Shown here: positions 1 through 64,000 of the stretch, in pieces
How the letters are laid out: the number at the start of each line of letters is the position of its first letter
Position numbering within the stretch: position 1 is the stretch's first letter
Assembly: GCA_008632985.1 (NCBI GenBank)
Contig: QPGO01000036.1
Coordinates: 62,001 to 126,000 of the forward strand
Source of the DNA: Psammoneis japonica
Lineage: Eukaryota
Direction: 5' to 3'
DNA: 64,000 nt
Notes under the pieces: model-generated
What the model saw: the letters and a program-made list of their open reading frames with translations, nothing else
What the model was told of the DNA's origin: nothing
Database searches by the model: none
Made by a program: the position numbers and the translations under genes

Positions 1-1025
1 ATGATGTGATTCTTCGCGAAAGTTACCGTGCGGTGACACTCACGGACTGAATCCAGTCCATGCGTCTACTCGAGCTACTACTCTATGGCATCCTAGTGGG
101 GGTCTAGCTGGTGCCGCTGGTGCCCACACCAAAGAGACAAACCCACAACAAAAGGCAAAAACAATGGTCCTCAACAAAGTTCCTAAGAATGGCCACAGTT
201 AAATGTGGGCAATCTGTGAGTCACACCACCCAAAATGAGAAGCAAGACCCCCCCTCTGGGTGCCCTCCTCCTGCCTGCCTTGTCCCCCTGCCCCCTCCTG
301 ACAACACCATCACCGCAGCTGATCCAACACAACTGAGAATGTTCATTGGTCAAATCAGCTGGAGTTGCAGCATCAAAGATGGGAAGTGGAACATGCCACA
401 TTGCCAAAAACCAAAACACTTGATGAGGATGGCCAGCCAGAGTTTTGGACTTTCTCCGCCAATGCCAAGGGCAGCAACACAACCCCAGTGTCGGGTTTGA
501 TTTGAAGCAAAACAACACAAAGTGTCAACTGCCACCCTTGGAAGAAAAAATTTCAAAAACCATGGTTTGCATCCAAAGAATGTGACGAAAAGAAGGAAAG
601 GAGCCTTGCTGAGTGAATGAGCAGGGACAATGACAACTTCCACACTCTCTGTTGAACAAACCATTGGGGAAGCTTTTGTCAGACAAGGGACAAAATGCAC
701 TCAAAAGAAGGATTTTGCTGAGCTTGTAGAATGTCTCAGCAAAGCACCTGAATGCACGAGCTTGGAGACTTCCATTGATGCCAACATTTGTGGCCCACAA
801 GCTGCGCCATCATTGCACATTGTGAAGGAATGGGGAGGAGGACAGGGCAGCACCTTTGAGGATCTGCTGCATGGTTTTTTGGACTGAGAACTTGGGCATT
901 TGTCTGAAAACTGGTCCTTGATCTCTCAGCTCCTTGGCCCATCATTTTCCTCAAGCTCAAGCTGCCAGGAAAACACTGCAAGGCCAACAAAGGACCACGA
1001 TGAGAGTTTCCACTTGAGGGCCAAC

Positions 1026-1459
1026 TGCAGCATGCATGCAGACAAAAGGTTATTTTTGTCACGCCCTTTGTGACATTTAAACTGTAACACGTCGCCGTGA
1101 TACATTAACTCTTATTAGTAGCTGTATATTGCACTCCTCCCCATGTATCACGCGCAGAACTAATGTGCACTGACACTGCACGTTTTTGGCGGAACAGTGT
1201 GGGTACGTACAAAGGAACATACAGAACTGCACAGAGTTTTACGCGTTCGACAGTGATCAACGTTGCTGCAGACAACTCCCACTCAGGGTTTCGAACCCCT
1301 GGCCTCCTGCCTAATGGTCACGCATTGAACCACTCCGCTATGAATTCATAATGCAGCATGCATGCAGACAAAAGGTTATTTTTGTCACGCCCTTTGTGAC
1401 ATATAAACTGTGACACGTCGCCGTGACACATTGACTCTTGTCAGCAGCTGTGTGTTGCA
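1026..1459 (-). mobile_element. TRIM-like miniature LTR retroelement (108-bp LTRs at 1026-1133 and 1352-1459, 4-bp TSD CAAC)
   Basis: Two 108-bp direct repeats, each TG...CA. CAAC flanks both ends (1022-1025, 1460-1463). Purine tract GGGGAGGAG on the minus strand next to the left LTR. Element absent from copy B, which has a single CAAC. Confidence 0.9.
1277..1348 (-). other. tRNA-derived segment with Pol III A-box and B-box inside the TRIM
   Basis: Minus strand reads TAGCGGAGTGG (A-box, 1340-1330) and GGTTCGAAACC (B-box, 1297-1287) at tRNA-like spacing. A full cloverleaf is not convincing. Confidence 0.7.
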
Positions 1460-2816
1460 CAACCTCTTCATCAGCAGCAACACAGCATCACAGCAACATT
1501 TGGTTTTTTGATGCACATGGGTGCACTCACATGGCACCAACCAGTGAAACAAATGAGCTGTGTTGTGATCTTCCAGCTGTGCAGATTGCTGATTTTAAGG
1601 TTCAGCTCTCCATCTCCAGTTCTCTGAATGGGACAAAGAAGCTGCAGTCTCCTCCAGAAATGCCTCACCTTGATCTGCCTCTTCCAAGCCAGAGCACTCT
1701 ACTTGCTGATGACTTGTTGCATTTTTCAGGTCCATCCTTGGGGTTGCTTTTGTGCGGTGCATCGTGCGGCATGTCACACAAAGCTGCTTCAACCACGACC
1801 AGATTTGAGAAGTTTGTTTTGGTCAATCAGCTCGGAGCCACTCCTTCATCCCAGCAGAGGCCACAGGGCCTCATTTTTCTTCCAATCAAATCATCAACCA
1901 GCAAAAAGCAGCCACAAGTGGCTGACAATGATCTGACCTCAGCAGATGCACTGCACCCGGTGCTTCTGGCATGTCAGAAAATGACAGAACTCCCCTCTTC
2001 TTTGCACCAGATCCTTTGTTGTTGTTTCCTGCTTGCCCTTGTTCTCTGCAATGTTCAGAAGAACAGAGTCCTGACACTGTGGACTGCAACAAACACGGTG
2101 GCTGCATCTTGTTCCATTGCACCCTCCATGATGAAGAAGAACATTGATGTTGTTTGACATGCATTTGGCATGCAGGAAGCATCCACAGGCGGTGTCTTGA
2201 TCATGCACAATGATGGCAATGACAATGAAACATCCCAAGTGCCACAAAAACTGTCCAGTGCTGTGGGCACCTTCTTTTTTGACCCAGGCTGCACCTTGCA
2301 TGCAGCCACGGGCTTTGGCTGTGGCAGGGGCCCAGCATGTGTGCTTGACCAATTTGCCAACCTTGGTGGAATGTGGCATTCAATCCAATTTGCTGTGCAA
2401 TGGGGCTGCATTTGACAGTGATGATGGTGACAACAATGCAAAAGTTGCAACAACCATGTTGGGTTGGACACGCCCGGTGCCAACCCATTCAATGAAACAA
2501 ACATGGGACTCAATTGTTGCCTCCAATTGCCTCTTGTTGCAGCGCTTGTGTCAAAACACAATCTGCACTGTGGATGCATTGCCATCACCTGCAACACAAT
2601 TTCTCTTCACCTCTCAATGCCATGTCTTAAATGAACAACAAACAACTTTGGAACAAGTTTTGTGGGGGTGACTCATGTCAAACACAAATGGCATTGCAAG
2701 TGCCAGGCACACCATGTTGCTTGAATGAGATGGTGCTGACAAGTTGAACAGCTGCAGTGAATTGTTCTTGTGGCATGTGAAGTGGCAGTTGGGGCACCCA
2801 ACTTGAGAGAGCATGT

Positions 2817-2851
<35 letters not shown>

Positions 2852-2884
2852 AGGGAGGGAGAGAGGGAGGGAGGGAGGGAGAGA
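2817..2884 (+). repeat. (GA)n / G-run / (GGGA)n microsatellite (copy B at ~34672-34732)
   Basis: Read directly from the sequence; length differs between the two duplicated copies. Confidence 0.95.
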
Positions 2885-3268
2885 CACACGCTCATTTTGC
2901 AAATTTGCTTTCTTCTTTTTGTGCAAAGAAATGCAACAATGGGCACAGGATGGGGCTTCTTGTTGTAGAAATTTCTTCTGGCATGAATGCACAAGCAACA
3001 AGCATGATCCATTCACTGTCTGGTGACTTTGTTGCAGCAGACAGCAACAAAAGGGGATGTCCATCCATGCAAGTGGCAGAACGTGCGCATCCAAAAGTGT
3101 GGCTTGACTGCTTGGGTGCACTTGCAGACACTGCCAAATGGCCAAAAATGAACAACATTAATCACACTGAAGAGCAGACAGATTTGCAATCAAAAACAGT
3201 GCATGCAAATGCATCAACACAGGAAAGACAAGCATGTGGCACATGGTTTTTAGTTGAAGTCAGTCCAT

Positions 3269-4640
3269 CTAAATGCAATGACACATGGCCCACCCAAGTT
3301 TCCTCCTTTGAAGACACAGCCATTCACAGACTGCACAAAAAGGCCCTGGTGGTGTTGCACCCATGCTGGGTTTGTTTTCACAACTGGCATCACAAAAGGA
3401 TGGGCATGTGCCAATGACTGCATCTGTTGGAAGTTTCAAACCCCAAGCATGCAGATTGTGATTGAATGCTTTGGCACACTCAAAGATGTCGCCAATGTCC
3501 TTCACAGAAGAAACATCCCAGACAGCAATGTTTGCATTGAACTTTTCTGCTTTTCTGAAAGTCCAAGCCATTTCAGTGACACCGCTGACATCCCACTTTG
3601 AAATGTCCATCCCACTTTGAAGTGTCAGTGGTGAAAAAGATGGCCTTGCAGATTGTCCAACTCATTGCAGTCACAGAGGAGAAACATTCCAACCAAAAGC
3701 AAATGTCTCCCTGGACAAAGTGTGGCACTCCACTGAAAAATTGTTCATCTCTGTGACACTTGACACACCCCAGTTGGAGATGGAGCTCCAATTGCCTCTG
3801 TGGTGCTTTGCAGCCTCTTCAGAAATGTCGCTCAAAAATTCTCAACTGAAGAGGTGTCCCAAGTGGAAAGATCACCACCCCAAAGCTGTCTGGCATGGCA
3901 AAATGTGTTTCTCATGACAGTGGTCACACTGGACACAACTGATCTCCATGTCCCTTGAGACCTTGATTGACTTCAGATGATTCAAACATGGAAGACATGT
4001 CTGTAACAGATGCAACATTCCTCTGTTCTCCAATGGGTTGATTGAAAATGGGAAACCACAGAACATGCCAGACATGTCAGTGACTTGAGCATCTTTCCAA
4101 GAAGACAATTCCTCACTGAACTTGGTCCCCCAAAACAAGTTGCTGCTGTCATCAACTGATGAAATGTCCCAATCCTTGAGTGAGAGATTGAATTGGGCTG
4201 CTCTCTTGAACATGGCATGCATTGTGTGCTGGCTTTGGATGCATCCCATTCATCAGTCAATTGACCAAAGAATGCTGCTCCATGGAAAATGCCACTCTCA
4301 TGTCTGTGACTGCACTGGCATCCCAATCACTGATCAATTGATTAAAGCTGGAGGCTTCCCTGAACATTTCAGACATGTCTGTCACCAAACTGACATCCCA
4401 ACCACTGGGGCTTTGAATGAAGGGCTGGGCCTTGTAAAACATGTGTTGCATCAATGTGGCGGCACTCACATCCCACCCCTGCAAGGGTTGGTTAAAAAAA
4501 ATCTGATTTTCAAAGAGATCGTGAAATTTTGTCACCTTGGAGATGTGCCAACCCTTGCCAAGGCTGTGTTGGGCCAAGACAGTGGTGTTGTTGGCACTTT
4601 CAAAGGCACCCAAGACTTGGACAAGTTTTTTGCAAATTTC
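3269..4640 (-). pseudogene. BspA-like / DUF285 repeat surface protein, degraded (copy B ~35117-36490)
   Basis: Repeated WDVSxVTxMxxMF / FNQxLxxWDVS motifs (WDVSGVTEMAWTF, FNQPLQGWDVS, WDVSLVTDMSEMFREASSFNQ) scattered over several frames. Confidence 0.85.
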
Positions 4641-4999
4641 AAAACAAGGACAGCCTTGCAGTCCCACACACAAAGTCTTTGGGATTGATGGCAGTGTCAT
4701 GAAACCTCCATTGTTGCTGTTGCTGTTGTTGGGATCACTGTTTTTGGGGCCACCATTGCCATTGTCTCTGCCACCATTGGGGTCACCATTGCCATTGTTT
4801 TCACCCCTGCTGGAAGGATTCAGTTTCTTTGGTTTGCTGGATTGGACCAAGTCAAAAGTGGAATGGCAGTGTTCACAAGAATGGATGCTCAAGCTGCTCT
4901 TGGATTGTGGCAAAATTGCCAAAAGTCAAGATGAGTGCTCTCCAATCTGGGAAGCAGTGGTGCTGTCAATGGGGTCATGTTGCAGGTGAAAAAGTGTCT

Positions 5000-6819
5000 T
5001 GCTGAACCCACAGATTTTACCATGCTTGCCAAGACACTGGATGCAGCCATGCAGATTTGCAATGTTCTTGCTGTGGACTTTGAGAGCTGACTCAAGGAGC
5101 TGACTCAAGGAGTCACTCAATGGACCCGTGCCACTGAGTGTCATCTTGCTTTTGTCAGGCATCTCTTGGACATGTGTGCCATTCCTGTCATTTGGGATTT
5201 GCGCAATTCACTCACCTCCATTGTTGATCAAGACTTGACGCTGGAATCCAAAGAACACATCATCATTCAAGAGGGCTTTCATGAAGAATTAGATGCCAGC
5301 AGGGAGCAATGCAAAAACCTTGGCAGTGTGCAACTGTGCCATCACAATGTGTCGTGATTTGCACTGACATGGTGCTCACAACCACAGCCATTGCTCTCTT
5401 CTAACATGCAGATCTGCTCATGTTGACTGCGGGCCAAATTGGTGACAAGCACGCTGAAGCAACAAGCATTTGAAACCAGAACACAGTGCAGTTTTCATTC
5501 TGCAAGCAGGATTTCGCACGGAACTTGAAAGACACCACTTGCCACCCCCATGCCCTCACTGAAAGCTGAAGCAAACAACATTTTGTCCCCAGATGCCAAT
5601 GTGCACTTGGATCTGCCACCAGATTTTGATTTTGTCTTTTTCCATTGAACAAAGCTTTGCTTCAAGGATGACAAGGTTTGAACTCTTGATCAAGAGAATG
5701 GGGAGTTGGATGCCACCATCAAGGACTCCATCATTGTGGTCATCACAGAGCTTGAAGAAGACATTCTTGATTGTGAAACAGAAGTTCAAAGTGCCTTTGG
5801 AGCACTTGCTGAACTCAATTGCATTCTTTCCTTTGCATGCTGCACTGCTGACAATGACTGCACTGGGCCCCAGTTGCTCCCCATTGACCAAATGTGTGTT
5901 CAAATCAAGAATGACAGTCATCCGTTGCAAGAACTCATTGTAGATGGAGAATTCATTTGGAACAACACAAGCATGAATGGGGAACAGAGTCATGTCAATC
6001 TCATTGCTGGACCAAACTTTGGTGGCAAGAGTTGCCACACTTGTCAGGTTGGAATGCTTGTGCACATGGCTCACATTGGATGCTGCCTTCCCTGTGACTC
6101 TGCCAGCATTTCCATGGCAGATCAGATTTTTTGTGTGCATTGACACCGCTGAAACTTGCTTGGTGCCCCACAGCAGCTTTCGGGATGATCTGATGCACAG
6201 GTGGCTTCTGTTCTTGGAAGGAGCACCCCTTTGTTGCTTGTGCTCATTGACAAAGTTGGAAAAGGTGGGCACAGACTCTCTGGAGGCATGCTTCTGGCCA
6301 TTTGACACTCAGCCCATCTTGTTTTCCTTGTGTGCTTGCATCGCTGAAGGCACAAGCACAGTTTTGGCAGTGGCAATTGAGAATCTTTCTTGCATGAAAG
6401 GCAAAATCATTTGTGCAACCCATTTCCTGGAAGTCTTTGGCTTGGGATTGCTGCGGGACAGTGCAGACAGAGTTTGTGCCCACCAAATGATGGCACACAT
6501 TCCAGAGTCAAAGAGCAAGGACAAAGAAGAAGACTCTGGTGCAGCACCCTTGTTCAAACTGGAGCAAGGCATTGCTGGGTTGTCTGCAGGGCTTGTGTCT
6601 GCCAAGAAAGCCTCACTCAAACTGGAGCAAGGCATTGCTGAGTTGTCCACAGGGCTTGTGTGTGCCAAGAAAGCCAACACAAACAAGAAAGTCCCAGCTG
6701 GAGCAAAGGACATCCTTGCCACTGCCAAAGATGGGTGCACCACGCAACTGTTTGAAGAAAGCATGAATCTCCCAGAGCCAAAGCCAGAGGTGAAGGATGT
6801 CTTGTGCATGTTTCTGTGA
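5000..6819 (+). pseudogene. MSH5: MutS-family ATPase, most like MSH5, degraded (copy B ~36850-38668)
   Basis: AELNCILSFA, HPLQELIV, Walker A GPNFGGKS, QVGMLVHMAHIGC.LPCDSASI...DQIF, ATHFLE and PLFKLEQG match MutS domains III-V. Frameshifts and stops present. The 5' boundary is approximate. Confidence 0.75.
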
Positions 6820-9499
6820 GTCAACTCATGGGCAAATGCCACAGACAAGCAACTTCACTTGCTGGAATGCATGCTTGCTGCCATTTCCATCCCACAGCAG
6901 GGGCATCACAGTTGGGGGCAGCTTGCGCAGACAACAAGGAGACAGGACCAAGACGTGAACAAGCAAGGTGGGTCAATCAAGGGATTTCCATTTTTTTTTT
7001 TGTGCTTCTTGTGTGGGAAAAGGCAGCACTGGCAGATGAGAATGCTGCAGCCCAGTTTCATAATTGAAGAGGCCTCCCCATCACAACAAGGTGGAGCAAG
7101 GGTGTGCTGAACCTTTTGCACACAGCTTCAATCACAAAAAATGGTGCAGGAGCTCTTGTGATGGTGTGGCATCTCTTGTTCTCTGGCATCAAAGTCAGTG
7201 AATGCAATCAGCAGGCTTCTTGCATGTCAGATGTGAGCAGCAGGTCTTGCATGGTGCTGCCCAGTCAGAGTGCAACATCCACGCACAGCACAAAGTGGGT
7301 CACCTCTCTGTTGAGATTGTGCAATGGTGCAGAGGCTAGAAGATGCGGTGTTGACAACAAGATGCTCAATGCGGTGGTGCCAAATTTGTGGGCAGATTGT
7401 CAACCACACTTGCTGCTGCACTGCAGTTGGCACTCTCATCTTTTTGGTTCCAGCAAAAAACACAAACAAAGCAAGATGTGTGTGAAAAGATTCCAGCATG
7501 GCTGCCGTAAACTGAAAAGCCCTTCACACGCAAGGTGACAATCTGACTTTACATTTTGGGGAGACTGCAGAACAATGTTCTACATCAATGTTTGCAGCAG
7601 AGCACTCTGCCGTCACCAAGAAGATGCCAAATCTGGCATCAACAATTGTGTGTCCCAGGCCAAACATGAGCAACAATGAAGAGAAAGAATGTTCTAAGAG
7701 AGGGGAGCTGTGGCAGCTCCTCTCGTGCTTTCACCATTTGCACGTCAGCTGGGCAATTTGTTGCATTGGTGTGGACAGAGAGAAAGTGGCATCTGCGTCA
7801 TGGAAGGGGCAAGCAAAATGCATGACAGGTGCACTGCCAATCTTTTGGGATGGGCTGTGCTCCTCCAAAACCAATTTGTTCAATTGAGTGACATCTGCCA
7901 TCAGTGTTTGAGTGGGGGCCTGGGTCTGTTTGAGTGGGCTTGGCTCCTTGTTGCAGCCACAAGGTCAAAAGTGTCAGGGGCATGATGTCCAGCTGCAAGG
8001 TTCCAAATGCTGGTTTTGCCACGACAATGATGATTTCTTTCTTCAAGAGCAAAAATGCAGCCCTGCAGTGACTGAAGTGTCTCTTGCATGGTCAACAAGC
8101 ATGTGCTCAGCAGGCCAAAGCCAAGACCAAAGCCAGCCACAACTCACAGCAACAAAGCCAGGCTCAACAGCTTGGGTGTGACAGACAGCCTCACACTTGG
8201 CAGCCACAGAAATGCTTCCATGCCAGGCTGAGTGACAAGAGGGACACACTGCATCTGCAAAGGACATGGTTGAGCCCCCGTGCTGCATGAGAATCCAGAA
8301 CACCTTGCAATGGTTGACAAAAGAAAGAGCTGAGAACAGAAAAAAGCCCAGCGCCAACAACAGACCCCAGACAAAGCTGGTCATCATTGAAAACCACATG
8401 ACAAACCTCACAGTCCCCAAGTGGAAAGAAAGCTTAGAGGATGTTTTGTCTTGTTGACCCTGTGCATTTTCGTCATCTCACGGTGACGCCCCTTCCAGCT
8501 GATCCCAAGAAGCTTCTGCCGCACTTGACGGTGCACTGGAAGTGTGGGCCAGCCGGCACCGGCTTGGCTGGCAAAGGAGTGACAGCACCACAAACACAGA
8601 TTTGGTTTTTTTTTGACCCTGTGCATTTGGTGCACCTCTCAGTTCCTCTGATGGGCAAAAGTGGTGGCAATTGGCACAGCTTGCCACAGCAGGGCAGGGC
8701 AGTTTGGCAACCTCTTTCTGCAAACAGACATCGGCTCAGCTTCTGACCACAAAAAAGCAACAAAAGCATGATGCATCAACAGCCATGGCTTGAACCAGCA
8801 ATGCTTGGGACAGTTGGCCTGTGCAGTCACTGCACAGAAGGAGGCCTCATGCAGGCCAAGCTGGGAGGTGGGCACTGGGCACATTTGCAAAGAGTTTGTT
8901 CCTGTTGTTGACAGCTGAGAGCCATTTCTGAGTCATTGCAGTTTGCTGTTAAACACCTGGTTGCATTGGCTGTGTGCTCACTTTGCACACATGTGTGAAA
9001 GCTCTTGTCCACATGTGAAGAGCTTCTGCTCCAAGCTCATCTTGGTGCTCAGCAAGCATTGCACAGCGCAGAACATTGTGCACACTGCTCACCAGCAACT
9101 TCAGGGGTCAATCAAAGTGCAACCCACCCAATGAGTGCACCTCACTTTCTTGCAGCTGATGCACAGTCATGCCAACATGTCCGCTCAGAAGAATGAGCAC
9201 AAATGATCATGCAGGCTTGAATGGCATGTGCCTTGAGAATGTCACGCATCTCCTCCTGCTGTGGGAGCCCTGCAGCAATGCCTGGTTTTGCTGGTGTCTG
9301 TCAGTTGTCATCAGCACATGCTGCATGGTCCTCCCCCATGACAAGAGCCACAGACCACCAGATGTCCTGCTGGCAATGGGGGGCACAATCTGCCACAGAT
9401 TGGGCACATTTGTCACCCCACCACACCATCTTGCATTCATGGCATGCTGTTGTCATTCACAAGGACAACTCTGACAGAGCCTGCATGACTGCTGTGTCA

Positions 9500-10449
9500 G
9501 CCCTGTGCTTGGGTTTTTGTTTCCATTTGACAAGCATGATGAGTTGCCTCATGGTGGGTGGAACATGTCCTCTGGCAAGCAGCACAACTGGTGCTGTGCA
9601 CGGAGACAGAATGTCCATGCACAGTTGGTGCAGGCAGCTCCATCACTCATCATGCCAAAGAAGGGTTTGACAGCACAAGTTGTTGACAATTTCTGTGGGG
9701 GCTTGAAAAGAGGAGGGCAGAGTGGCTGCCAGCCATGTCCAATTCACCATGTCCAGGATGTGGTGCTCAAGCTCAAAGGTTTCATGTGGACAATGCTGCC
9801 AGATCTCCACTTGGGGTGCCACCACATTGGACTTGACGGTGACAGCCAAAAGTTTTGTGCTGTGCTTGTGTGTCTGATGCAGGTCCCAACAATGGGGGCT
9901 CATCCAATTCACCCGACATCTTTCAAGAAAATGTGCCAGGGCTGTTTGAAGACTTGTTGTTTGCATGTGCATGCCCAGATGATCTTCTGGCAGCCACTGA
10001 AAGTGCTTCTGAAGACCACCACTCAGAGAAGCTGGCAGCCATGCTGCAGCTTGCAAGCAATGCTGGACTCAAGGTCAATGGAGGAAAAAGTGCACTTTTG
10101 AAAAATGCAGCTGGGGTGCCAGAGCCACACAGTCAATCAGGATGGGACACACTTCATGGGCACAATGAGCTGCAGTTGTGACAATGACCAAGACACTCTG
10201 AAATGTTGGACCACCCACCAGACAACTCAGCACAGGCAGGACTTCAAAATGGAGGCAGATGTGTGTCAAGGACAAAGCACTTGAAGCCAAAAAAGTGTGT
10301 TGTCAGACAACTTCTCATTGGCAACTTCAGGTTTCAACAAAGCTGATGCCTCCAAATGTCAACTCAGAGCAGCAACATCACAGGACAACAAACCTGTCAT
10401 TGCACCTTGTTGCAGCAGAAAGCTTGACAGTTGTTTGCAGTTGAACTGC

Positions 10450-10494
<45 letters not shown>

Positions 10495-11100: not shown

Positions 11101-11601
11101 TGTGGAAGAAGCTGTCAGAAAAAAGCATCTGAGATGATCCTGTGGGAGACCTCACATGTGTGGATGAAAAGCAGGCCCTTGGAAGCTCAGGCTCAGTGGG
11201 TTGACTGTGTGTGCCAAAGACTGACTTTGGCTGGAGCCTGGGCCACATGATTGAGTGTTCCAACCAAAACTGACCCAGCAGCTTGGCAGCCATTTCCAGA
11301 TCTAGCTTGTTCTTTTCAACTGCATGCTCCACATCAAAATGTGCTGTGAACATCAAAATCTTTTCAATGTGGCTGTGTGATTCTCCATGTGGAATTGCAT
11401 GATGTGTCTCTTGCAAAAGTTGCCACATGGCAGCAGCATGTGGTTCTTTCTGACAACTTCTTTCAACTTTGCAGTTGCAGAAGCAGCACCAGAATCAACT
11501 GTGGGAAATGGGCATGACATGCGTTGTGCAGAAAGTGGCAAATTGTTGTGCACTTCTTGCCAAAATGGGCCTGTTGCATTCAAAGGATTTTGACAGCCAA
11601 T

Positions 11602-15414: not shown

Positions 15415-15446
15415 CGCCGTCACGCCGTCACGCCGTCACGCCGTCA
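15415..15446 (+). repeat. (CGCCGTCA)4 tandem octamer between two divergent gene remnants
   Basis: Read directly from the sequence. Confidence 0.9.
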
Positions 15447-44717: not shown

Positions 44718-44718
<1 letters not shown>

Positions 44719-52954: not shown

Positions 52955-52993
52955 TTAAAAACAATAACAACAACACAGAATGATCGCGTCGTC

Positions 52994-54379: not shown

Positions 54380-54466
54380 CGTTGTGCATCTCACTCCATC
54401 GTTTGCCTCTCTTTTGTGTTGTGTCCGTCTTCGTCTGGTGGTTCGTGGTGTCAAAACAGAAGAGCA

Positions 54467-54710
54467 ATTAGACCTCGAGGTCTGAGGTCAAAATAAATGA
54501 AAACCATTGGAGGTCTATGGACCTCGAGCTCTGAGGTCCAAATAAAAACCATTGGAGGTCCATAACACCGGTAAGGTTGCATACTACTTTTTTTGAAAAA
54601 TCCATTAGACCTCGAGGTCTGAGGTCCAAATAAAAACCATTGGAGGTCTAATACTTTTTTTCAAAAATCCATTAGTCCTCGAGGTCTGAGGTCCATAAAC
54701 CATTAGAGGT
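54467..54710. repeat. Four-unit repeat array with the palindrome AGACCTCGAGGTCT in the divergent intergenic region
   Basis: Units of (att)agacctcgaggtctgaggtc(c)aaataaaaaccattggaggtc at ~54467, 54519, 54604 and 54671, with small variants. Confidence 0.92.
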
Positions 54711-54762
54711 TAAGTGTTAAAGTCGCCGCAATAACAACAATCGCTTTTTTGCCGCTGCCACC

Positions 54763-55916
54763 ATGGAGACAGTCCCCGAGAAGAGCCGTGCAAGAGCTCA
54801 AATGGTACATGAAGAGACACTCGAGCCCATGCGAGTTTCTCATGCGTACGATGGTCCTTCGCGAAACCTTTACGAGTCCATCATCACTGAACGCAAGCCC
54901 CACCTTTTGCTGGTTCTTGTCGTCGTAGTTCTTGTCGTGGCGCTGCTTCCAACCCGCGAAAGCGACAGCATTTTGTTTCTTCAGTGCCCACCACAAGTTC
55001 CCAAAGCTCCTAACGATGATGGGTATCACATAAATGTTGACTATTTGACAATAGAGGCTGGCGAAGGAAATCTGGTGCTGGGAAGAAACATTACACATTT
55101 TCTGGAGAACAGAACAATGCATTACGATAATTGGGGCCACTCCTACGAAGAAGTCAAGGAGGGAATGTACCATTGGAAGTCAACCATGTATGCCGACAAT
55201 GTCGAAAACGGGGACCGCATATATGAAAGCGCCTGTGGAATCGGTCTCAATCTATACATGACGCTTGAAATCCTTAACGAGGTCAAAGGCATCGATACGC
55301 TCTTTGTCTATGGGAACGATTATCTTCCGCAAAGCACAGCTTTAGCCAATCTGATTTTTGATCAGATGCCACCATTTCATTCGAAAAAGGGTTCATTGTG
55401 CACTGCCGACTCGACAAATCTGGAATTTGTCCCATCCGATACATTTGACGTCGTCTTTACTGGATACATAACGTAAGTTGCTCATTTCTTTTGCTGATCG
55501 GCGAGCCGTGGACCTTTGACTTAACCTCGATTACGTTGTTCAGTCCAATCTATGATCCCATTCAAATAGGAAATGGCACAATAAAAGAGAATTACAGACT
55601 GTATCGGGAAGTATGCGAAGAAACAGATTGGAAGAGCGAAAAACTAAAAGCTTTGTCGCAGGAAGCTCAAGAAGACTTCTACGCTGCTTGGGTGGGCGAA
55701 ATGATTCGTATCGCCAAACCAGGCAAGCCAGTAATTGTAGAGCAAGTCTCAAATCCTTATTGTGACGAATACAGAGATTGGGGTGGTGTTGCGAGAGAGT
55801 GGTGGGAACCGGCGATTCAGAAATATGGTTGGAATGTTGACCCGGATTCAATCGTGATGGAATATGACACGATTTTCTTTAATAGATATCATGTTTTCTT
55901 GCGGAAGAATCCATGA
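54763..55916 (+). CDS. Membrane-anchored SAM-dependent methyltransferase-like protein; intron 55473-55543
   Basis: N-terminal TM helix (LLLVLVVVVLVVALL), IYESACGIG (motif I), YGND, FDVVFTG, EMIRIAKPGKPVIV. The GTAAGT...CAG intron joins the two ORFs in frame. Confidence 0.85.
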
Positions 55917-56421
55917 CGGAGCTCAGTATGAACGATTGATGAAGCGACTGTGTTTCTTCTCTTCGTGTGAGGGTAGCTCGCTCGACATCGCAACCAAAGG
56001 CTCGACATACTCAAACTATTGATGATAGTAATTCTGAAGCTAACTACAGGTTGTCATCTTTAGTGATACTATACTTTGAACTACTCTGCCTACCATCAAT
56101 CTACAACAAATCAAGCATGCAGGTGTGGATAGTTGCCCTACTCTTTCTGCCCTCTAGCTCATTGCGTTGCCTCTTTGGGGTTGAACTTGACAACTCTGTT
56201 TACACCCTGACACCTCTTGAGAGTTGGACTTGGGGCGCCTGTAAAATGGCTAGCCCCAACATTTTGTGCAGAATCGCTCAGGTAGATCTATCATCCTCTG
56301 CCGCTCTGAACTCTGCATTTTCTCTGGCTGCTACGATCAACTCTCAACTCTGGGCTAGTGCAAGATTGACAGATGAGATCTTTCAACCGGGCCTTCCCAA
56401 TTCTGTGCTATGGTATGCTTT

Positions 56422-56666
56422 TGACAGGGATCCCACATGACCCTTTTATATTGGAACCTCATGTTCGAAGATAGCATATATATTCAGTCGGGTTTATGAC
56501 TGAAATTTACTGATCTTTCGGAGTGTTTCAACAACCTGTCGGAATCTATCCGTTCTGACAGCCACATCGATTCTGAGACTAGCTCAGAATCTCTCACAAC
56601 TTCTAGACAAAGCATTATCGCAAGGTACTGTTTCTAGATTAGGCTCTAGCTTACTCTCTCCTGTCA
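56422..56666 (+). repeat. 5' LTR of the copia element (245 bp)
   Basis: Begins TGACAGG and ends CCTGTCA (7-bp inverted termini). The same TGACAGG follows the PPT at 63994. Confidence 0.85.
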
Positions 56667-56676
56667 GTGCACGGAC

Positions 56677-59600
56677 TTGATCACCCAAGACACTCTCAGG
56701 CGAGTGCCCAGCTCTCACCCATTTCCCATCATGGTTGCAACACTTCCGGTTCGGTCCAACACGACCGCTTCTTTCAAGCCGAGTGCTGCTCATGCGTCTC
56801 GCAATGCTTCCTCTCCCAAGCCGTCTTCGCACGCACTTTCTTCGCATGAAGCTTTCACGGTCCACGGATGCTCCGTCGATGACGTCCCCATGGCCGACCC
56901 TCGTGACCGTTGTCACAATGTTGATGCTGGCTCCATTGTTCAGCATGCTGGCATGTACACCGCACGTCGTCGTCGATCTCGTCGCGTGACCCAGGGCGTG
57001 CACCACCCTGCCACCCGTTGCATCAAGCGCGCATCTGCGCCACGCTCCAAGCCGCCTTCCAAGCCCTCGCAGCAGGCCCCCAGGCGCAACAAGGTCTCCA
57101 CCCGTCGCTCTCAACGTGCTGTCAACCGCACGCTCTCTAGCTCTACCGACACTGTGGATTTTGAGCGCCGTGTTTGCTCATCTGTTCGTGGCCTTCGCAA
57201 CGGCAAACCCGCCACTTTGCCCAGGACCCTTCATGCTGTTTCGCAGCCGACTCGCAAGCGCACCAAGACCGCTCGCCGTCGCACCAAACGTGCTCTTCGT
57301 CGCTCTGTTGCTTCGGTCAAAGGCACCCCGGCTCCTGCTCTGCCTGCACCTGACGAGCTCCGTCTCTCTCGTGTCAAAGCTGACGTCCGCGCCGCTCTCA
57401 GCGAACGTCTTGCTCAGGCCCAGGCCCGAGTTGATCATCTCCAACTCGAGACTGAAAAGATCTGCTCCAACTTTCACATTGTCAAGCACTCTCGTGCTCG
57501 ACTTGACACGTTGTTGGAACAATCCACTCACGATGAATCCAAGTTTTTCGACCCCGAGCACAATCTCTGTGACCGCGCGATCCGCGACCAATTGACAGAT
57601 GTCGACTCATCCCTTGACATTTTACATGTCGATTTGGACACTTTGCATGACCGCATTCCGAAACCTTCCGCACGCGATAACCCCGCGCCCTCTGCTCACT
57701 TTTCTGGGCCGCGCCCCCGAAAACGTCAAACCAAATCACGCTCGCGGCAATCACTCCGGATGACTCCCAACCAGGAACACCATGCACTACGATCCTACCG
57801 TCTCCGCCATGGCATGTCCCGCTCCGAACCCTTTTATCATCCAGACGCCGACTCCTTCTTTCGGCCTGAAACAAGAAAGTGTCAAGACAGTGGCCCACAG
57901 CAGTCTCCGCACCCCTCTTCCGATCACTTCATCTACGTCACCGTTGAAACTGTACACTCCGACGATGCGGACGATGCATCAGCTCAAGGGGCGTCTCAAC
58001 CCATTGCTGACGACCCGCCACCCACTGTCACTGCACCACTGGGGTCCCCTGAGGAATTCCCCCCGCTTTCATCTCCAACGGATCAAGCCACTCCTGCTCT
58101 CTCCCATGTCGACCCATCATCAACCTCCGCGACTCCGCTTTTTGATGTTGTCACTCCCACGTTGAATGAAATGGATGAAGCACTTGACAAGGCTCTTGCC
58201 TCTCCTGCTCACACTCCTGCAGTCAACTCACCTTCTCCAGCTTCGCCCGACACCTCTGACGCGCCTGATCTGTCCGTCGACCAAGACATCAACGTCCAGG
58301 TTCGTCTCGTCACCTTCGAGGCTCTCTTCGACACCCAACAAGCTCTCGCACCGTTTTTCCATCGTGAGAATGAACGTGCCGCTGAGCTTTGCGACACTGT
58401 CGATTCGGCGAAAACGTCTTTCGAGCGCCTCCTTCGTCGACACCCTGCTTGCGAAGCAAGCACTCTCGCACTTTGTCGTTTTCAGGACATGATGCGCGAA
58501 GCCGAGTCCCTTTACTTGGAACTCATGTTCCGCCTTGCCCTCACCCCACGACCACACCCCGCTTCCCCGTCCGCTCACCACTCATCAGTTGACGACACTG
58601 TTTTCTCTCATGTCGCAAGCGAGCGCACCTCGGAATCCTTGTCAAATTCACTGATGAAGCATGCATCTCACACAAATTTGCGCACTCTGAAGCACCATCA
58701 GAATCCGCACACACGACGACAAAAATTTCATGCATTCTTGAATGACTTGCGTGGGACCTTCGCATCATTTCCGGAATTCAATGGTGCACTCGATGATTTT
58801 CCCTCTGTCCCTCTCCGCCCACTTCCAGACCATGCCGACAGCACCCTCTGTGCCCTCCTCTGGACGCATGTGGACGCAACGTGCCAATCTGACATTTCTG
58901 ACCTTGGATCTCGTTCCGGCAAACTTGCTCTCGAAGAACTCCAGCTGCGCTGTGCGCCCATCACTCAGGAACACAGCAACCACTGTTCAAACGACTACCT
59001 CCAAGTCTTTCGCAACTCGGATGAGTCCGCCAGCAGCTTCATCCAACGGTTTGAACGAAAACTCCGGAGCCACAAGAACGCCGGCCTTCCCGTCAAGACT
59101 GATGCGGATGTCAGTGCCCATTTTCTTGGCCAAATGGGCAGCCATCCCCGCTGTGATGCTGCCATCAAGCAATTCGAATCCGAATTTCGCACTGCTGCTC
59201 GTCTCTCCTCTGCCACCGCTCCTCGATTTAAGGACATCCGGCAAACGTTTTATGATGTCGACGAGCAGCATCACAACCAACAGCATCGTGATCGGCTCTC
59301 GCATGGCTCCCGCTCCCGCTCTCACAACAACCATGCTCACCTTGCCACCGTCAAACGCGCTCCTCGGAATGCACAACGACAGCAACAGCAGCACCGTTGC
59401 CCAAACCAACCTAACGCCACCGAGATCTGCGACTGCTGTGGCAAACGCAACCACAACGCCTCCGAATGTCGCTCTCGGCTCCGTGATCTGAAGAAGGGCA
59501 CACCCAAGGATCAACCTGCTGCCAAACCTCCTCGCGACCTCAGCGAAGTCACGTGCCATAACTGCAGAAAAAAGGGGCACCTTCGTCCCGACTGTCCCGA

Positions 59601-62600
59601 ACTCGCCAAGGACTCCAAACAGACCGCTCTCGCAGCCACTGCACCCACCATGCACTGCCGCGCAAAGGCACCTCCCCCGAAGGACCAAATCATTTTCTGC
59701 GCTGCTCGAGCTGATGTGGAGGACACTCACTCTTGTTGTCCCTCCTCTTCTGACTCTATCCCAACCCTGGTGCCATGCCACGTCTCCTTTGATGACGACT
59801 CATCGGCCTGCTGCTCCACGAGTGACTCGATCGCATCTTCCTCTGCTCATGGAACAATGCCTGCCATCACTCTCCAGGACCTCCTTGATGACACCTCTTC
59901 GATTGATGGCAACAACACTCTCTCCGCCAACTCGCACTCTGCTGGTCCTCCGCCCCTTGCACATCATGATTGCGACTCCAGCACGGAATCATCATCCACC
60001 ACGCCGTTTTTGGTCCGTCGCCCACGCAAACCGGATGACACTGCGGCCTGCCCTTTTGATGAACCGCCCCCCGGGAACTCTCCCGCGGAATCACCAGTCT
60101 GCTTCGACTTCCACGACGCTTTCACCACGGCATCTTACGCCTCCAGGCACACTGCCATCTCTGACGATGATGTCGACTCCGTCACATCTGATCTCAGCTG
60201 TGACTCCATCGACACGGTCCACACCATCCCCCGTTTCTCATGCGACACCGCTGACTGTCACGTTCAAGTTGCATGCATGGCCGACGATCCCAACCAGTGC
60301 CGACCTCACCAACAACCACGCGACTCCGACCTCACGGACATCAGCAGTTGGTTTGTCGACTCTGGTGCCTCTTCCCATTTCGTTCATCATGACTCACTTG
60401 ACGACAGCACCCCCTGTCACGTCCCTGTTGTCATTGCAGACGGCACCACCGTTCATGCCACGAAAGTTGGATCCGTCACCCTCCGTTTTCAAGATGACCA
60501 AGGACATCCGGTCAACCTTGTTCTCGATCGCGTCCATTGTGTCCCCGGCCTCAACTGGAACTTGTTTTCGGTGCCCTCCTTCACGGCCAATGAACTCTTC
60601 AATGTCCGAATCACTGCCAATGTCACGACACTTGATTTTGGCGACGGACACACATTCAGCTTCCCGATTCTCCATCACAAGCGCTCCTGTCACGATGTCA
60701 CCGCTGCCACAGAACCGGAACCCACTTCCGACCTCCCGTTGACGGAAGCAACCAACGCCCAAGGCTCATCGAAACCAGCGACACATGCAATCGACCTTGA
60801 CCTTGCAGGTCGCCGTTTCGGTTGTCGCTCCTCTCAGAGCCTTTTGGCGGGCACAGTTGGCGAAGTTTGGCGCGACTGCCATGTTGCCCCCGGGACTGAC
60901 GACTGTCTCGACAACGCGCGCATCGCCATCTCCCGAAAGCGCAACCGCGTCAAGTGTGACCCAACTGAACCAACACACACATTTTCACGTGTGTTTGTGG
61001 ACACAATTCCCAACCCTCACACAGTCGCACTCACCCCAAAAACGTCCTTTCCCTGCCACCTCTTTTTGGCAACCCACAAAGGACACTGCTGCGGTGTTCG
61101 TGGCCTCAAGAGCCCATCATCTGGCAACATCATCGCCGCCTTTAAATCATGGATGACCGAAGTGCAATCCCAGGGACAAATCCAAGACACAAACTTCATC
61201 CGCGCGGACTCCGCAACATGTTTTCTGTCCTCCGAATTTCTTGCATTTGGTGAAGACAATGGAATCAAGGTCGAAGTTGCCACTCCACGTCACCAGGAGC
61301 AGAACGGGGTTGCGGAACGCATGTGGCAAGTCGTCAGCCGGATGATTCGTTGCCTCCTTGTCAACGCAAGACTCTCGGCACACTTCTGCCATCATGCATT
61401 TGTTCATGCCGTCGCCATCCTGAACGTTCTCCCAGCCAAAGGCACGCGGCTCCCTGATGGCTCACTGGCTACACCGTGCTTCCATGCATTCAACAGACTT
61501 CCAAAGATTGGCAACTTTCGGGTCTTCGGATGTCCCGTCACTTTTGACAGATGCCAACCCCTCAACCCGGCAACTCGTTGCCCGACCACCACCCAACAAC
61601 AGATTCAACATCGATCTTGTGGCATTCATGTGGGTTTCGCACCAAACCAGGCTGGTTGCCTCATCTGTGTTCCTGAGGGCATCGGCACCAAGAATCTGAT
61701 TGTCGCGCATGACGCTGTCTTCGACGAACTTTTCGAATCATCACTCGTGCACGACCACGTCCCCTTCTCTGGCGCACTCCCGATCCGGAACATCTCCAAC
61801 GACGCCTCCGGCCTTGAGACATGCAACGAGAATCCTGTGGATGAACATGCGGGTGCCATTCAAGATTTCCTTGACGTTGACTCACCCCCTTGTCCCTCCA
61901 CTCTCACCGAAGCGCCTCCGGAATCCGATGAATCCGATTCAGAGCCACCATCCCCTGCACCCACTACAACCGGTCTCAGACGATCCACTCGCACCAACGC
62001 TGGCCTCCGCACTTCCGTGCGCTTCGCGGACGAGGAGCAACTCTACGCCATAACCTCCTCCACTCCCCCAGTCGATCTCCTCGAACAAACTCTCTTCGAC
62101 GACTCCCTCGCCATGGAATCTGCGTACAGCGCCTCCGTCAAATCTCCTTGGCCTGACTGCAATTGGCACAAATGCCCGGATCCTTTACAACAGGCCTTGG
62201 AAGCCGTCCAGGCCACCTCTTCATTTCCCATTGATGACTGCTCACCCGTTCCCCGCTCTTTTCGAGCCATCCTCAGACAACCTCCTGCGATTCGCGACGC
62301 CTGGCTTCGTGCCGTCCGATCTGAGCTCAAGAACCTCATCGTGGACAATGAAACCTTTGCTCTTCATGAATGTCCCGTCCAGACGATGAGATCATTGGCG
62401 CCACACTTGCTCTACGTGCCAAGGAGAAATCCGACGGCTCTCTGGAGAAACTCAAGGCTCGACACTGTGCGCGCGGCGACATGCAACGCAAATCAGCCGA
62501 TGACGACAATTGGTCACCAAACGCATCCTCTTGTGCCATCAAGCTCTTCCCAGCTTTTGCAGCAAAGGCCAAACGGCACGTCAAGAATGGTGATTTTGTT

Positions 62601-63956
62601 GGTGCTTGCCTTCAAGCCCCCGCTCGCGGCCGCCTCTTTGTTCGATTCGACCCGATTCTGAAGCAACATTTTCCTGAATGTGCTGAATGTTTTGGTGTGC
62701 CCCTTCGTCTCAAGAAAGGCATGTGCGGGACCATCCGCAGTGGTCTTTGGTGGTCCACCGAGCTCTCCGAATTTTTGCTTGCCCAAGGACACACCAATTC
62801 CAAAGCAGATCCCACCTTCTTTGCCAAGCACTTCCCCGACGGCTCATGTCTCAAGCTCATTTTCTACACGGATGACATCATCTACTTTGGGTCTCACGAC
62901 AGAGTCGAGAAGGACTTTGAGAACCTCACACGATCCAGGTGCAACATCACATTCAACAGTGACGTCACCTGGTTCTTGCAAATGTGCATCCACCGACATT
63001 CCGACGGCTCCTTCTCTCTCGACCAACATCGACATGTGCGCAATCTCCTCAAGCGGTTCCTTGCTCCCACCTCGCCTTGGGGCAGCCCCAGCTTTCAGGA
63101 TGCCCCAGCCCCCGTTGATTGTGTGTGCTCCAAAGCGAATCAACCCAAGGACGCCGCCGAATCCAAGCAAATCGCGAACAAGTATCCTGGTCTCCATTTT
63201 CGATCCGCTGTCTGCTCCATCCTTTATCTCGCCTGCAACACTCGCGCTGACATTCTCTGGATCACCTGCAAACTTGCAAAGGCTTGCACCAACCCTGGTG
63301 TGAAGGATTTTGATGCTCTCGTCCACCTTTTTGGCTGTCTCCGCAAACATCAAGACCTCGCCATCAAATTTTATTCTGATCCCACCGCGAGCCCTGTTCA
63401 CGCTATTTGCGAAGCTCACGACATCAGCCATTCTGAATTTGTGGTCTTCGCCGATGCCAGCTGGCAGGATTGTCCGGACACCGCCAAGTCAACCGTTGGA
63501 TTTATGGTCTACTTCAATGGGGCAACAGTGGAAGCCAATTCCACTGTCCCAACCCCTGTTGCAATGTCCACTGCCGAATCCGAGTGGATGGGTGCCTGCA
63601 CTGGCGCCATGGCTGTCGCTCACCTGCGCATGTTGGCCTGCGACTTCACCTTCCTTGGCACTCGCCACTGCTCCATTGACTCCCAGCGACTGTCCACTGC
63701 TCCCACAATCCTCATGTTGGACAACCAAGCCGCAGTCCAAATGGCCCAAAACGACCAACAAACTCGACGAACCCGACATGTTGAGCGACGCTTCCAATGT
63801 GTCCGCGAAGGGCAGCGACTCGGTCATCACTTGCTTGTTTGGGTTCCCGCGGAAAGTCAATTAGCGGACTGCCTCACCAAAACTCAATGTGCAGACAAAA
63901 TTTGGGTCATGGTCGACCGTGTCCTGTGGCGCCTACCTGCACACATGCTGTCATGA
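56677..63956 (+). pseudogene. Copia gag-pol polyprotein; one frameshift near 62375; conserved Tyr replaced by Cys/His
   Basis: Zn knuckles CDCCGKRNHNASEC and CHNCRKKGHLRPDC; protease WFVDSGASSH; integrase IRADS...TPRHQEQNGVAER; RT LKARHCARG, DFVGACLQ, LKKGMCG, FYTDD; RNase H FADASW, STAESE, DNQAA, QLADCLTK. True start unknown. Confidence 0.92.
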
Positions 63957-64000
63957 GCCCCTTCTCATCTTCCCTCATTCGGTTCAAGGGGGGTGACAGG

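Follow-up and report, generated by a model that had tools for sequence, protein, structure and literature searches.

TpA-depleted repeats in a diatom contig suggest targeted TpA to TpG/CpA hypermutation

Repeats, transposon remnants and pseudogene copies in the DNA analyzed here have probably undergone a process that converts TpA to TpG or CpA and spares adjacent expressed genes, a reading to which we assign a probability of roughly 0.7. The window (the whole stretch, 64 kb in length) appears from its genes to be nuclear DNA of a diatom; its CobW protein shares 46-63% identity with homologues, and all of the named organisms among the matches listed are diatoms. An initial annotation had proposed such a process as a repeat-targeted genome defence. 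The features of the window are listed in Table 1.

Table 1. Features of the 64-kb window
Feature	Position	Strand	Evidence
TA-/CG-depleted repeat block, duplication copy 1; Gypsy, DDE_3, gene fragments	1..13596	.	composition, Pfam
DUF285 (BspA-like) gene fragments in depleted DNA	3272..4925	-	PF03382, E 2.5e-27, 1.1e-17, 1.6e-13
Ty3/Gypsy reverse transcriptase and RNase H remnant, TA O/E 0.00	9843..10743	+	RVT_1 8.7e-5, RT_RNaseH 1e-6
DDE_3 transposase remnant (DNA transposon), depleted	12786..13151	-	PF13358, 5.4e-13
Island 1, genes with normal TA and CG	13597..16526	.	TA O/E 0.46-0.80
HA domain, island 1	15860..16291		Pfam, 3e-25
TA-depleted repeat block	16527..28384	.	composition, edges
Hypermutated partial copy of island-2 gene	17698..18637	+	74.5% identity to 29557-30509
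Repeat, TA O/E 0.14-0.18, CpG intact (about 0.9-1.0)	24315..25600	+	composition
Island 2, spliced gene or family, normal TA; unmutated counterpart at 29557-30509	28385..31159	+	
TA-/CG-depleted repeat block with duplication copy 2 (32382-43702) and (TG)n tract	31160..49336	.	
DDE_3 remnant, second copy	42892..43257		PF13358, 2.8e-13
Assembly gap, 184 N, at the (TG)n tract	44483..44666		
Gene block, normal TA and CG: YCII, MatE, CobW/G3E GTPase	49337..56652	.	Pfam
Ty1/Copia running off stretch end; TA O/E about 0.07, CpG about 1.0	56653..64000	+	Pol_BBD, zf-CCHC, RVT_2

TpA composition of the window

Over the whole window, the observed/expected (O/E) ratios from dinucleotide counts were 0.187 for TA, 0.445 for CG, 1.68 for TG and 1.60 for CA. 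The 500-bp TA profile was bimodal, with O/E values of 0.00-0.13 in nearly all repeat windows and of 0.41-0.86 at 13.6-16.5 kb, 28.4-31.2 kb and 49.3-56.65 kb. The repeat compartment (50,795 bp) held 210 TA (4.1/kb, O/E 0.06) versus 581 (44.6/kb, O/E 0.61) in the three gene islands (13,021 bp), a difference in TA frequency with a Fisher p of 5e-229; the initial claim that TpA is nearly absent from decayed repeats and normal in the gene block and two islands was thus borne out. Depleted DNA had about 10-fold less TpA, CpA and TpG were raised to 1.7-1.8, and the O/E of AA was 1.23. DNA of this kind gives rise to many spurious long ORFs, because neither TAA nor TAG can exist there.

LTR elements (Gypsy and Copia), a DNA transposon and gene fragments, the last including MutS_V and Methyltransf_16 fragments, were located by Pfam inside depleted DNA, as had been claimed; LINEs, which had been named as well, were dropped from the list, none being identified by Pfam. 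The ORF at 24315-25292 had no family match in the Pfam search.

The boundaries of depletion are abrupt and were resolved to tens of bases. The last TA upstream of the Copia element is at position 56652, and at the start of island 1 TA returns 1 bp past the end of the duplication. CpG is also missing from most of the depleted DNA (O/E about 0.1), but at four edges the zone of TA depletion extends 200-350 bp beyond that of CpG depletion, and in two elements (56653-64000 and 24.3-25.6 kb) TA is depleted without CpG loss. The initial annotation mentioned neither this CpG loss, nor the two elements with TA loss alone, nor the 184-N gap. TpA loss is therefore separable from CpG loss, in space and in time.

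Polarised substitutions and sequence context

The decayed copy at 17698-18637 was compared with the intact copy in a spliced gene at 29557-30509, and the island copy was used as the reference. A purine/pyrimidine-collapsed self-comparison gave mostly chance matches at 73-78%, and pairs of at least 80% alone were used. None of the 51 TA of the island copy was kept in the decayed copy, where 26 were CA, 19 were TG and 6 were other dinucleotides. Both of the relevant claims of the initial annotation were upheld by this pair: a TA of one copy appears as TG or CA in its partner (45/51), and both outcomes occur on the same strand, here at 26:19 (binomial p 0.37). The 47 CG of the reference were likewise all lost, 20 to TG and 20 to CA, whereas 481 of 763 (63%) of the other 14 dinucleotides were kept (p 1e-21 against TA). 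The island copy retains a TA O/E of 0.67-0.86, and only its decayed partner is mutated.

A>G changes were found at 21/51 adenines of TpA versus 24/192 other adenines (p 2e-5), and T>C changes at 26/51 thymines of TpA versus 14/158 other thymines (p 7e-10). The enrichment at TpA over other A/T contexts, a contrast singled out in the initial annotation, is thus present in both directions. Error-prone Pol eta synthesis (WA>WG), which had been offered as a candidate mechanism, was rejected: its signature predicts A>G at both ApA and TpA, but the change was seen mainly at TpA, with A>G at only 9/71 ApA, 74% of ApA kept versus 0% of TpA, and AA in excess in depleted DNA. Adenines following A, C or G were mostly spared, which argues against Pol eta. 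A further pair (24756-25614 and 45353-46205) is, at 59% identity, too diverged for context counts; its commonest class of double difference is CA/TG (18).

Among the 210 surviving TA, the context RTAY accounts for 14 (7%), versus 33% in the islands and 25% at CA/TG source sites, and YTAR for 103 (49%), versus 17% and 24% (p 1e-24 and 1e-20, respectively). As RTAY is lost and YTAR is spared, the target of the mutator looks, judging by these contexts, like the A within 5'-T-A-Y-3', and the contexts could partly reflect the birth of new TA sites rather than mutator preference.

In sequence, A>G on one strand is T>C on the other, and T-A-Y for the adenine is R-T-A for the thymine, which is also what a thymine-modifying enzyme would leave. 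If TET/JBP-type enzymes oxidised the thymine of TpA in silenced DNA to 5hmU or 5fU, mispairing with G would give T>C, and the mutations would be by-products of an epigenetic mark with no dedicated mutator. In the DNA of dinoflagellates, 5hmU is concentrated at TpA and TpC, and 5-formyluracil forms mispairs with G. A sharp-edged effect on one compartment resembles a chromatin mark, thymine and 5mC are both 5-methyl bases, and the palindromic YpR steps TA and CG both go to TG/CA in old repeats. However, the separability of the two losses weakens a single-enzyme picture, and the sole published case, in the part of its text available, favours a deaminase, itself unproven. We consider thymine modification unlikely.

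Duplicated copies and sequencing reads

The two duplication copies (the 1-13596 block and 33316-43702) are 98.4-98.5% identical. They carry 11 TA-versus-CA/TG differences, which per YA/TR site are no commoner than other transitions and could equally be new TA sites arising; this pair is therefore no evidence of current mutator activity.

Contigs of 908, 737, 3500, 2515 and 2194 bp, obtained by k-mer re-assembly of the public run X1, had 0, 1, 2, 1 and 1 substitutions relative to depleted DNA, and X1 contigs of 0.7-3.5 kb reproduced the 16527-28384 block with 0-2 differences. The pattern, for which the initial annotation had looked to the raw reads, is accordingly present in read contigs, a check that is not independent in that X1 may be the source sample of the assembly and its platform is not on record. 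That provenance, together with the 184-N gap, is what a technical artefact would need, in which modified bases, or errors of assembly or polishing, cause TA to be read as TG/CA in repeats. Such an artefact is nevertheless extremely unlikely, since the depleted stretches were recovered nearly unchanged by re-assembly, the changes are protein-coherent (Tyr to Cys/His, open frames) and differ between paralogous copies, and the two 98.5% identical copies have CA/TG states in common.

Contigs of run X2, which is not on record as RNA, bridge 96- and 106-nt stretches with CT..AC or GT..AG ends in island 1, and in island 2 they have joints of 70-152 nt with GT..AG ends. X2 cover is absent over 16.7-27.3 kb, which, given the same record, has no bearing on repeat expression. 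At 29.8-31.1 kb the summed X1 contig depth is about 2,850, approximately 45x that of the neighbouring depleted stretch, and the expressed multi-copy family in island 2 keeps its TA despite this depth; repetition alone is therefore not the trigger. X1 depth is about 60 on depleted DNA and 140-220 on island 1, values that are not read as copy number.

The Copia element and its relatives

The frame of the Copia element is open for 2003 codons and its Tyr content is 0.5%. Of the 10 Tyr columns with conservation of at least 75% among 11 Copia relatives, 3 were kept (five are Cys, one His and one Trp), versus 147/179 for all other residues (p 7e-4). In two other Copia protein alignments Tyr was kept at 0/14 and 4/15 positions, and the changes across them comprised 12 to Cys and one to His (p 0.003). 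These protein outgroups and the gene-copy pair show the direction of change to be the one proposed earlier, from TA to TG/CA, with TA not the derived state. The element has 5 TA/kb versus 34-66/kb in its relatives, so that about 90% of its TA is gone; relative to them, TG is up by about 20/kb and CA is unchanged. A bookkeeping of TG and CA against the relatives by flanking class is unbalanced, lineage compositions differ, and it was not used for strand bias.

The Cys excess departs from strand symmetry and may reflect an RNA-, cDNA- or transcription-linked part of the process, or the T-A-Y rule only. It would suit A-to-I editing of transposon RNA by an ADAR- or ADAT-like enzyme, fixed by reverse transcription during retrotransposition, as would the one-sided rise of TG, the sense-strand A>G behind the Tyr to Cys changes, a depletion edge that coincides with the Copia start within a few bases, and the preference of ADAR and ADAT for U 5' of the edited A, as given in the available part of a preprint (bioRxiv 10.64898/2026.01.13.699255). 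However, every Tyr codon reads T-A-Y, and the context rule alone can therefore produce the Cys bias; depletion is just as strong in non-coding repeat DNA and in the DDE_3, DUF285, MutS and methyltransferase fragments; and the sense strand of the gene/pseudogene pair has both CA and TG. RNA editing is improbable as the explanation and was rejected as sole marker, given the depleted DDE_3 and gene fragments and the sense-strand T>C at 26/51 TA. Since the affected sequences include a DNA transposon and gene fragments as well as retroelements, a DNA-level process is likelier than RNA editing alone, in keeping with the initial view of a chromosomal process.

In the Copia frame, 126 transition sites could yield a stop, each by C>T or G>A, and all remain unused. 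A>G and T>C changes make no stops and destroy TAA and TAG, and hypermutated elements therefore keep long open frames. Such frames are full of missense changes, replacement of Tyr by Cys or His among them.

Copia relatives at 29 metagenome loci had TA O/E values of 0.30-0.94, with none of the 29 below 0.30 in a search that requires conserved peptide motifs. Seven of these loci had CpG loss alone, with TA O/E of 0.30-0.82. Tyr content was 1.67-6.1% (median 3.58%) in the best 150 representative proteins; none of these cluster representatives fell below 1.67%, and no second hypermutated organism was found in either search. Intrinsic transposon composition was rejected as the cause, the Copia relatives not being TA-poor. 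Slow, untargeted removal of TA from non-genic DNA by a mutational equilibrium bias or by selection would fit the 20-40% divergence of old repeats at non-TA, non-CG sites and their parallel loss of CpG. It is very improbable, however: the Copia element lost most of its TA with CpG intact, its frame open and its possible stop transitions unused, within the same genome TA is retained in islands and genes, the edges are sharp, and the seven CpG-poor relatives elsewhere retain TA.

Proposed mechanism

The net change would be A>G at the adenine of TpA, on either strand, at a rate that the open Copia frame indirectly bounds at no less than about 50-100x background. The agent is probably an enzyme working on chromosomal DNA, and the likeliest candidate would be an adenine deaminase of the TadA/ADAT type, whose product inosine is subsequently read as G. 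Candidate cues for targeting are homology, small RNA and chromatin state; homology guidance, raised in the initial annotation, gains no support from the expressed family that keeps its TA or from the gene/pseudogene pair, in which one member alone is mutated. The CpG loss in older repeats may be ordinary 5mC deamination, which would accumulate more slowly.

Significance

To our knowledge, hypermutation-based genome defence is almost unknown beyond fungi and animals. Natural DNA adenine deaminases attract great interest, for their biology and as tools for base editing. The saturated footprint over all repeat classes in a diatom suggests that such a system is widespread in major phytoplankton lineages, and diatoms include genetically tractable species. 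Repeat TA O/E, Tyr-poor open transposon frames and the T-A-Y rule provide a genomic read-out for screening genomes, with which the responsible gene could be sought by phylogenetic profiling. TpA-depleted DNA also hides transposon homology from ordinary searches.

Comparison with known systems

The process had been presented as undescribed, a description that gave way to a precedent from Bigelowiella natans, in which viral DNA that is integrated and silent shows A>G/T>C hypermutation restricted to TpA (bioRxiv 10.64898/2026.01.13.699255). According to the available part of that preprint, two viral regions carried 231 mutations, of which 230 were A>G or T>C, all of these on TpA; they arose de novo in some mutation-accumulation lines only, at about 6e-7 per site per generation or about 1000x background. 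The same part of the text describes TpA-poor, CpA- and TpG-rich clusters, with TpA-poor CDS enriched in RT and DDE domains, and proposes defence by an ADAT-like DNA adenine deaminase, with an ADAT2-like candidate. In our literature search this preprint was the sole related report, and nothing was found on TpA loss in the repeats of diatoms; a term search of its available text did not return CpG, flanking, trinucleotide or diatom. What is new is the near-saturated diatom case of a kind of hypermutation known from one 2026 preprint on an unrelated alga.

The process acting here may be of the same sort as that in the B. natans lines. In both, A>G and T>C fall on TpA and not on other A/T contexts, TpG and CpA are both produced with either strand used, and host genes are spared, the affected DNA being foreign there (one of the two regions transcriptionally silent, in the text available) and repeats here. 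The hosts differ, a chlorarachniophyte (Rhizaria) versus, by gene homologues, a diatom. De novo events were caught there, whereas a footprint is seen here, and TpA depletion of the viral region is only mild (Rho 0.45 in the same text) versus 0.06 here over all repeat classes seen.

5mC deamination accounts for the CG to TG/CA half of the changes in old repeats, but it is unable to remove TpA, and the domains of CpG and TA depletion are offset from each other; it was rejected as the whole cause, TA being gone as completely as CG and alone in two elements. Deaminase restriction, by APOBEC3 on cDNA or ADAR on dsRNA, resembles the present case in its enzymatic transition signature, its neighbour-base rule and its action against mobile or foreign nucleic acid. 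However, APOBEC makes C>T, and ADAR, as an RNA enzyme, would leave its mark on one strand of retroelements only, whereas the marks here extend to a DNA transposon and gene fragments and lie on both strands.

RIP shares with the present case a transition hypermutation that is confined to repeats, inactivates transposons and leaves a sharp-edged dinucleotide footprint. It was rejected as the cause: RIP, as described in the sources available, makes C>T mainly at CpA and creates TpA and stops, whereas here TpA is destroyed, being about 10-fold down instead of raised, and stops are impossible; RIP also strikes both copies of a duplication, whereas here the expressed island copy is spared and unmutated. 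Tentatively, and with somewhat less than even confidence, a TpA-directed chromosomal mutator, either a T-A-Y adenine deaminase or a thymine-modifying enzyme, might be common to diatoms and chlorarachniophytes and perhaps ancient in the SAR supergroup; it would be saturating here, with about 90-99% of TpA erased from every silenced repeat, independently of cytosine methylation. If so, eukaryotes would have in this shared TpA mutator a second RIP-like genome defence, one with a different chemistry.

Islands and depleted DNA

Over the whole window, the observed/expected ratio (O/E) was 0.187 for TpA (TA), 0.445 for CG, 1.68 for TG and 1.60 for CA. The 500-bp profile of TA O/E was bimodal: nearly all repeat DNA had values of 0.00-0.13, and three regions referred to here as islands (13.6-16.5 kb, 28.4-31.2 kb and 49.3-56.65 kb) had values of 0.41-0.86. 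A total of 210 TA were counted in the 50,795 bp of depleted DNA (O/E 0.06) and 581 in the 13,021 bp of islands (O/E 0.61; p 5e-229), in agreement with the initial annotation, which had described TpA as nearly absent from repeats and normal in a gene block and two islands. The edges of depletion were abrupt: TA resumes at 13597, one base past position 13596, where a duplicated block ends, and stops at 56652, at the start of a Ty1/Copia element (hereafter Copia). As TAA and TAG are impossible without TA, long ORFs arise in depleted DNA that are mostly not genes; the window contains 90 stop-to-stop ORFs with a length of 150 aa or more, which in depleted DNA often overlap and occupy both strands. 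The features of the window are listed in the table.

Features of the window and their coordinates
Feature	Position	Strand	Remark
Duplication copy 1, compared part	1460-13596		
Piece in copy 1 only	8108-9860		1.75 kb
Island 1	13597-16526		
Edge strip	16527-16742		without TA, with CpG
Depleted copy of island 2 sequence	17698-18637		
Repeat	~24.3-25.6 kb		TA lost, CpG ~1.0
Edge strip	28140-28384		without TA, with CpG
Island 2	28385-31159		
Island copy of the pair	29557-30509		spliced, TA-normal
Multi-copy stretch	29825-31072		within island 2
Tandem duplication	30585-30885		150 bp, within multi-copy stretch
Edge strip	31160-31378		without TA, with CpG
Duplication copy 2, compared part	33316-43702		
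(TG)n microsatellite	44440-44717		broken by gap
Sole gap of window	44483-44666		184 N
Edge strip	48969-49336		without TA, with CpG
Gene block	49337-56652		
CobW/G3E GTPase	52997-54487	minus	Pfam; gene block
MatE transporter, YCII protein			Pfam; gene block
Copia	56653-64000	plus	TA lost, CpG ~1.0
Copia reverse transcriptase (RT)	62370-63953		
DUF285, MutS_V, lysine-methyltransferase-like fragments			Pfam; depleted DNA, long open frames
Ty3/Gypsy, Ty1/Copia, DDE_3 transposase remnants			Pfam; depleted DNA, long open frames

The homologues listed for the CobW protein showed 46-63% identity, and the organism names among them were all diatoms (Fragilaria, Cylindrotheca, Seminavis, Nitzschia and Epithemia); the window is thus diatom nuclear DNA, without a close sequenced relative in the homologue database. 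Contigs were rebuilt from k-mers of two public sequencing runs of the same sample, X1 and X2. X1, a run of 2019 whose platform is not on record and which is possibly the assembly's own source, contained 90% of the sampled words from 48-58 kb, and its contigs of 908, 737, 3500, 2515 and 2194 bp recovered depleted DNA (16.1-27.8 kb) with 0, 1, 2, 1 and 1 substitutions, respectively, which reproduces in this one run the pattern that the initial annotation had proposed to confirm in reads from two platforms. An assembly artefact is unlikely. X2, labelled 'DNA?', acts like RNA: its contigs lie on islands only (13691-16219 and 27867-30577) and skip segments of 70-152 nt bounded by GT..AG or CT..AC, and the islands therefore hold spliced genes. 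One part of island 2 had a summed X1 contig depth of ~2,850 versus ~60-200 nearby and was therefore assigned to a multi-copy family; its TA and CpG are normal.

Direction and context of TpA loss

A 74.5%-identical pair of sequences, one in island 2 and one in depleted DNA, was compared. None of the 51 TA of the island copy was kept in the depleted copy, where 26 were CA, 19 TG and 6 other, and none of the 47 CG was kept (20 TG and 20 CA); the remaining 14 dinucleotides were kept at 481 of 763 sites (63%). A>G changes were found at 21/51 TpA versus 24/192 other A, and T>C changes at 26/51 TpA versus 14/158 other T. The statement that TA in one copy is TG or CA in the other therefore holds for 45 of 51 sites, with both outcomes on one strand as had been claimed. 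Polymerase eta, proposed earlier for its WA>WG signature, was rejected because ApA is largely untouched while TpA is lost. Since only one member of this pair is mutated and the multi-copy stretch (29.8-31.1 kb) is TA-normal, repetition alone is insufficient as a trigger. Homology guidance, named in the initial annotation, gained no support from these data. The view that LTR, LINE and DNA transposons and captured genes are all affected was borne out for LTR elements (Ty3/Gypsy and Ty1/Copia), a DNA transposon (DDE_3) and gene fragments; it was not for LINEs, none being recognised by Pfam in the window.

RTAY accounted for 14 of the 210 TA surviving in depleted DNA (7%), versus 33% in islands and 25% at CA/TG source sites, and YTAR for 103 (49%), versus 17% and 24%, respectively (p 1e-24 for the comparison with islands and 1e-20 for that with source sites). 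On an additive reading, the changed A would prefer a 3' pyrimidine (5'-T-A-Y) or, equivalently, T a 5' purine.

Most depleted DNA is also poor in CpG (~0.1), with TG/CA at ~1.9. Two elements have lost TA and retain CpG, and at four edges the CpG-poor zone stops 200-350 bp inside the TA-poor zone, leaving strips without TA yet with CpG; the two losses are therefore separable. The CpG-poor domain is nested within the TA-poor domain. The CpG loss of older repeats would be ordinary 5mC decay.

Copia and its relatives

The Copia frame contains 0.5% Tyr, 3.3% Cys and 5.2% His, with Tyr at 3.3-3.7% in four relatives, and none of the best 150 representative proteins had Tyr below 1.67%. In the protease-integrase region, the 14 columns with Tyr in at least three of the four relatives read 0 Tyr, 5 Cys, 1 His, 4 Phe and 4 other in the window; 15 RT columns that are all Tyr in relatives read 4 Tyr, 7 Cys, 3 Phe and 1 Leu; and 10 columns of at least 75% Tyr in an 11-relative alignment read 3 Tyr, 5 Cys, 1 His and 1 Trp, with 147/179 other conserved residues kept (p 7e-4 versus Tyr). 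By these outgroups, TA is ancestral rather than derived. Together with the pair and context counts they uphold directional loss and TpA specificity; the DNA-level reading also holds.

Conserved Tyr in Copia became Cys 12 times and His once (p 0.003), which could point to a step tied to one strand (at the level of RNA, cDNA or transcription) acting on this element; TG is also ~20/kb above relatives with CA unchanged, but the gains and losses counted by flank do not add up, and the excess of Cys may follow from the T-A-Y rule, since Tyr codons are always T-A-Y. All three Tyr codons kept in the RT alignment have a preceding pyrimidine. Tyr is kept in the F-Y-T-D-D and I-Y-F-G motifs of RT, and 16 of the 36 surviving TA of Copia are in-frame Tyr codons; this pattern may hint at earlier selection on a lineage exposed to mutation pressure, or may result from the context rule only.

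TA O/E was 0.30-0.94 in 29 related metagenome Copia loci. Seven of these (L011, L016, L017, L018, L023, L024 and L028) are CpG-poor (CpG O/E 0.00-0.23) and keep TA (0.30-0.82), so that in other organisms CpG has decayed with TpA retained; the lowest TA is that of L024 (TA 0.30, TG/CA 1.6).

Rate of TpA loss

The Copia frame is open over 2003 codons. Among its 6009 possible transitions 126 would give a stop, all of them C>T or G>A and none A>G or T>C, and 0 occurred; if selection was not acting, background transitions at these sites would be below ~2.4%. With TA at 5/kb versus 34-66/kb in relatives, TA loss would thus be at least ~100x faster than background. CA+TG exceeds TA by 53:1 in depleted DNA (11,106 vs 210), and per-TA loss would exceed back-mutation ~53-fold if this ratio is an equilibrium.

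Comparison of the two duplication copies (98.5% identity, 10,362 aligned positions) gave 24 shared TA and 11 TA-versus-CA/TG differences, and 61 shared CG and 36 CG-versus-CA/TG differences; these counts are unpolarised and alone no proof of current activity. CA in one copy faced TG in the other at 10 sites, versus 3.3 expected if shared TA and CG had decayed uniformly, which suggests a fast-decaying site subclass or a post-duplication burst. The piece present in copy 1 only has no counterpart in copy 2, where 39956 directly adjoins 39951, and is likewise completely depleted of TA (O/E 0.00-0.03).

Mechanism and comparison with known systems

The initial observation is confirmed and its interpretation partly supported. 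DNA adenine deamination seems the best reading of the observed footprint: an enzyme acting on chromosomal DNA would convert the A of T-A(-Y), whichever strand carries it, to inosine, which would then be copied as G. The substrate loop of bacterial TadA is U-A-C-G. A rival reading is that T at TpA is oxidised (to 5hmU or 5fU), which would give T>C; the sequence data do not separate it from A deamination. None of 5mC, APOBEC, Pol eta or RNA editing alone explains the pattern.

In a full-text literature search the sole relevant precedent was a preprint on Bigelowiella natans (bioRxiv 10.64898/2026.01.13.699255). Two integrated viral regions accounted for 231 of the 302 nuclear mutations in its mutation-accumulation lines; 230 of the 231 were A>G or T>C, those all on TpA, at a rate of ~6e-7 per site per generation and in some lines only. 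RT and DDE domains were enriched in TpA-poor CDS, and the authors proposed a defence by an ADAT2-like DNA deaminase (bioRxiv 10.64898/2026.01.13.699255). The T before the changed A in the diatom footprint matches the TadA/ADAT and ADAR preferences given in that preprint. The words diatom, CpG, flanking and trinucleotide are absent from the text searched. With the same signature on record there, the term 'undescribed' has to be given up. The finding described here is not of a new kind; it is the B. natans signature in a different major lineage. Compared with what is reported for B. natans, the diatom case is near saturation and extends across all repeat classes seen, and it adds three points: TA loss that is independent of CpG decay, edges sharp to the base and the T-A-Y rule. 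RIP makes TpA and stops, and the diatom process is the opposite.
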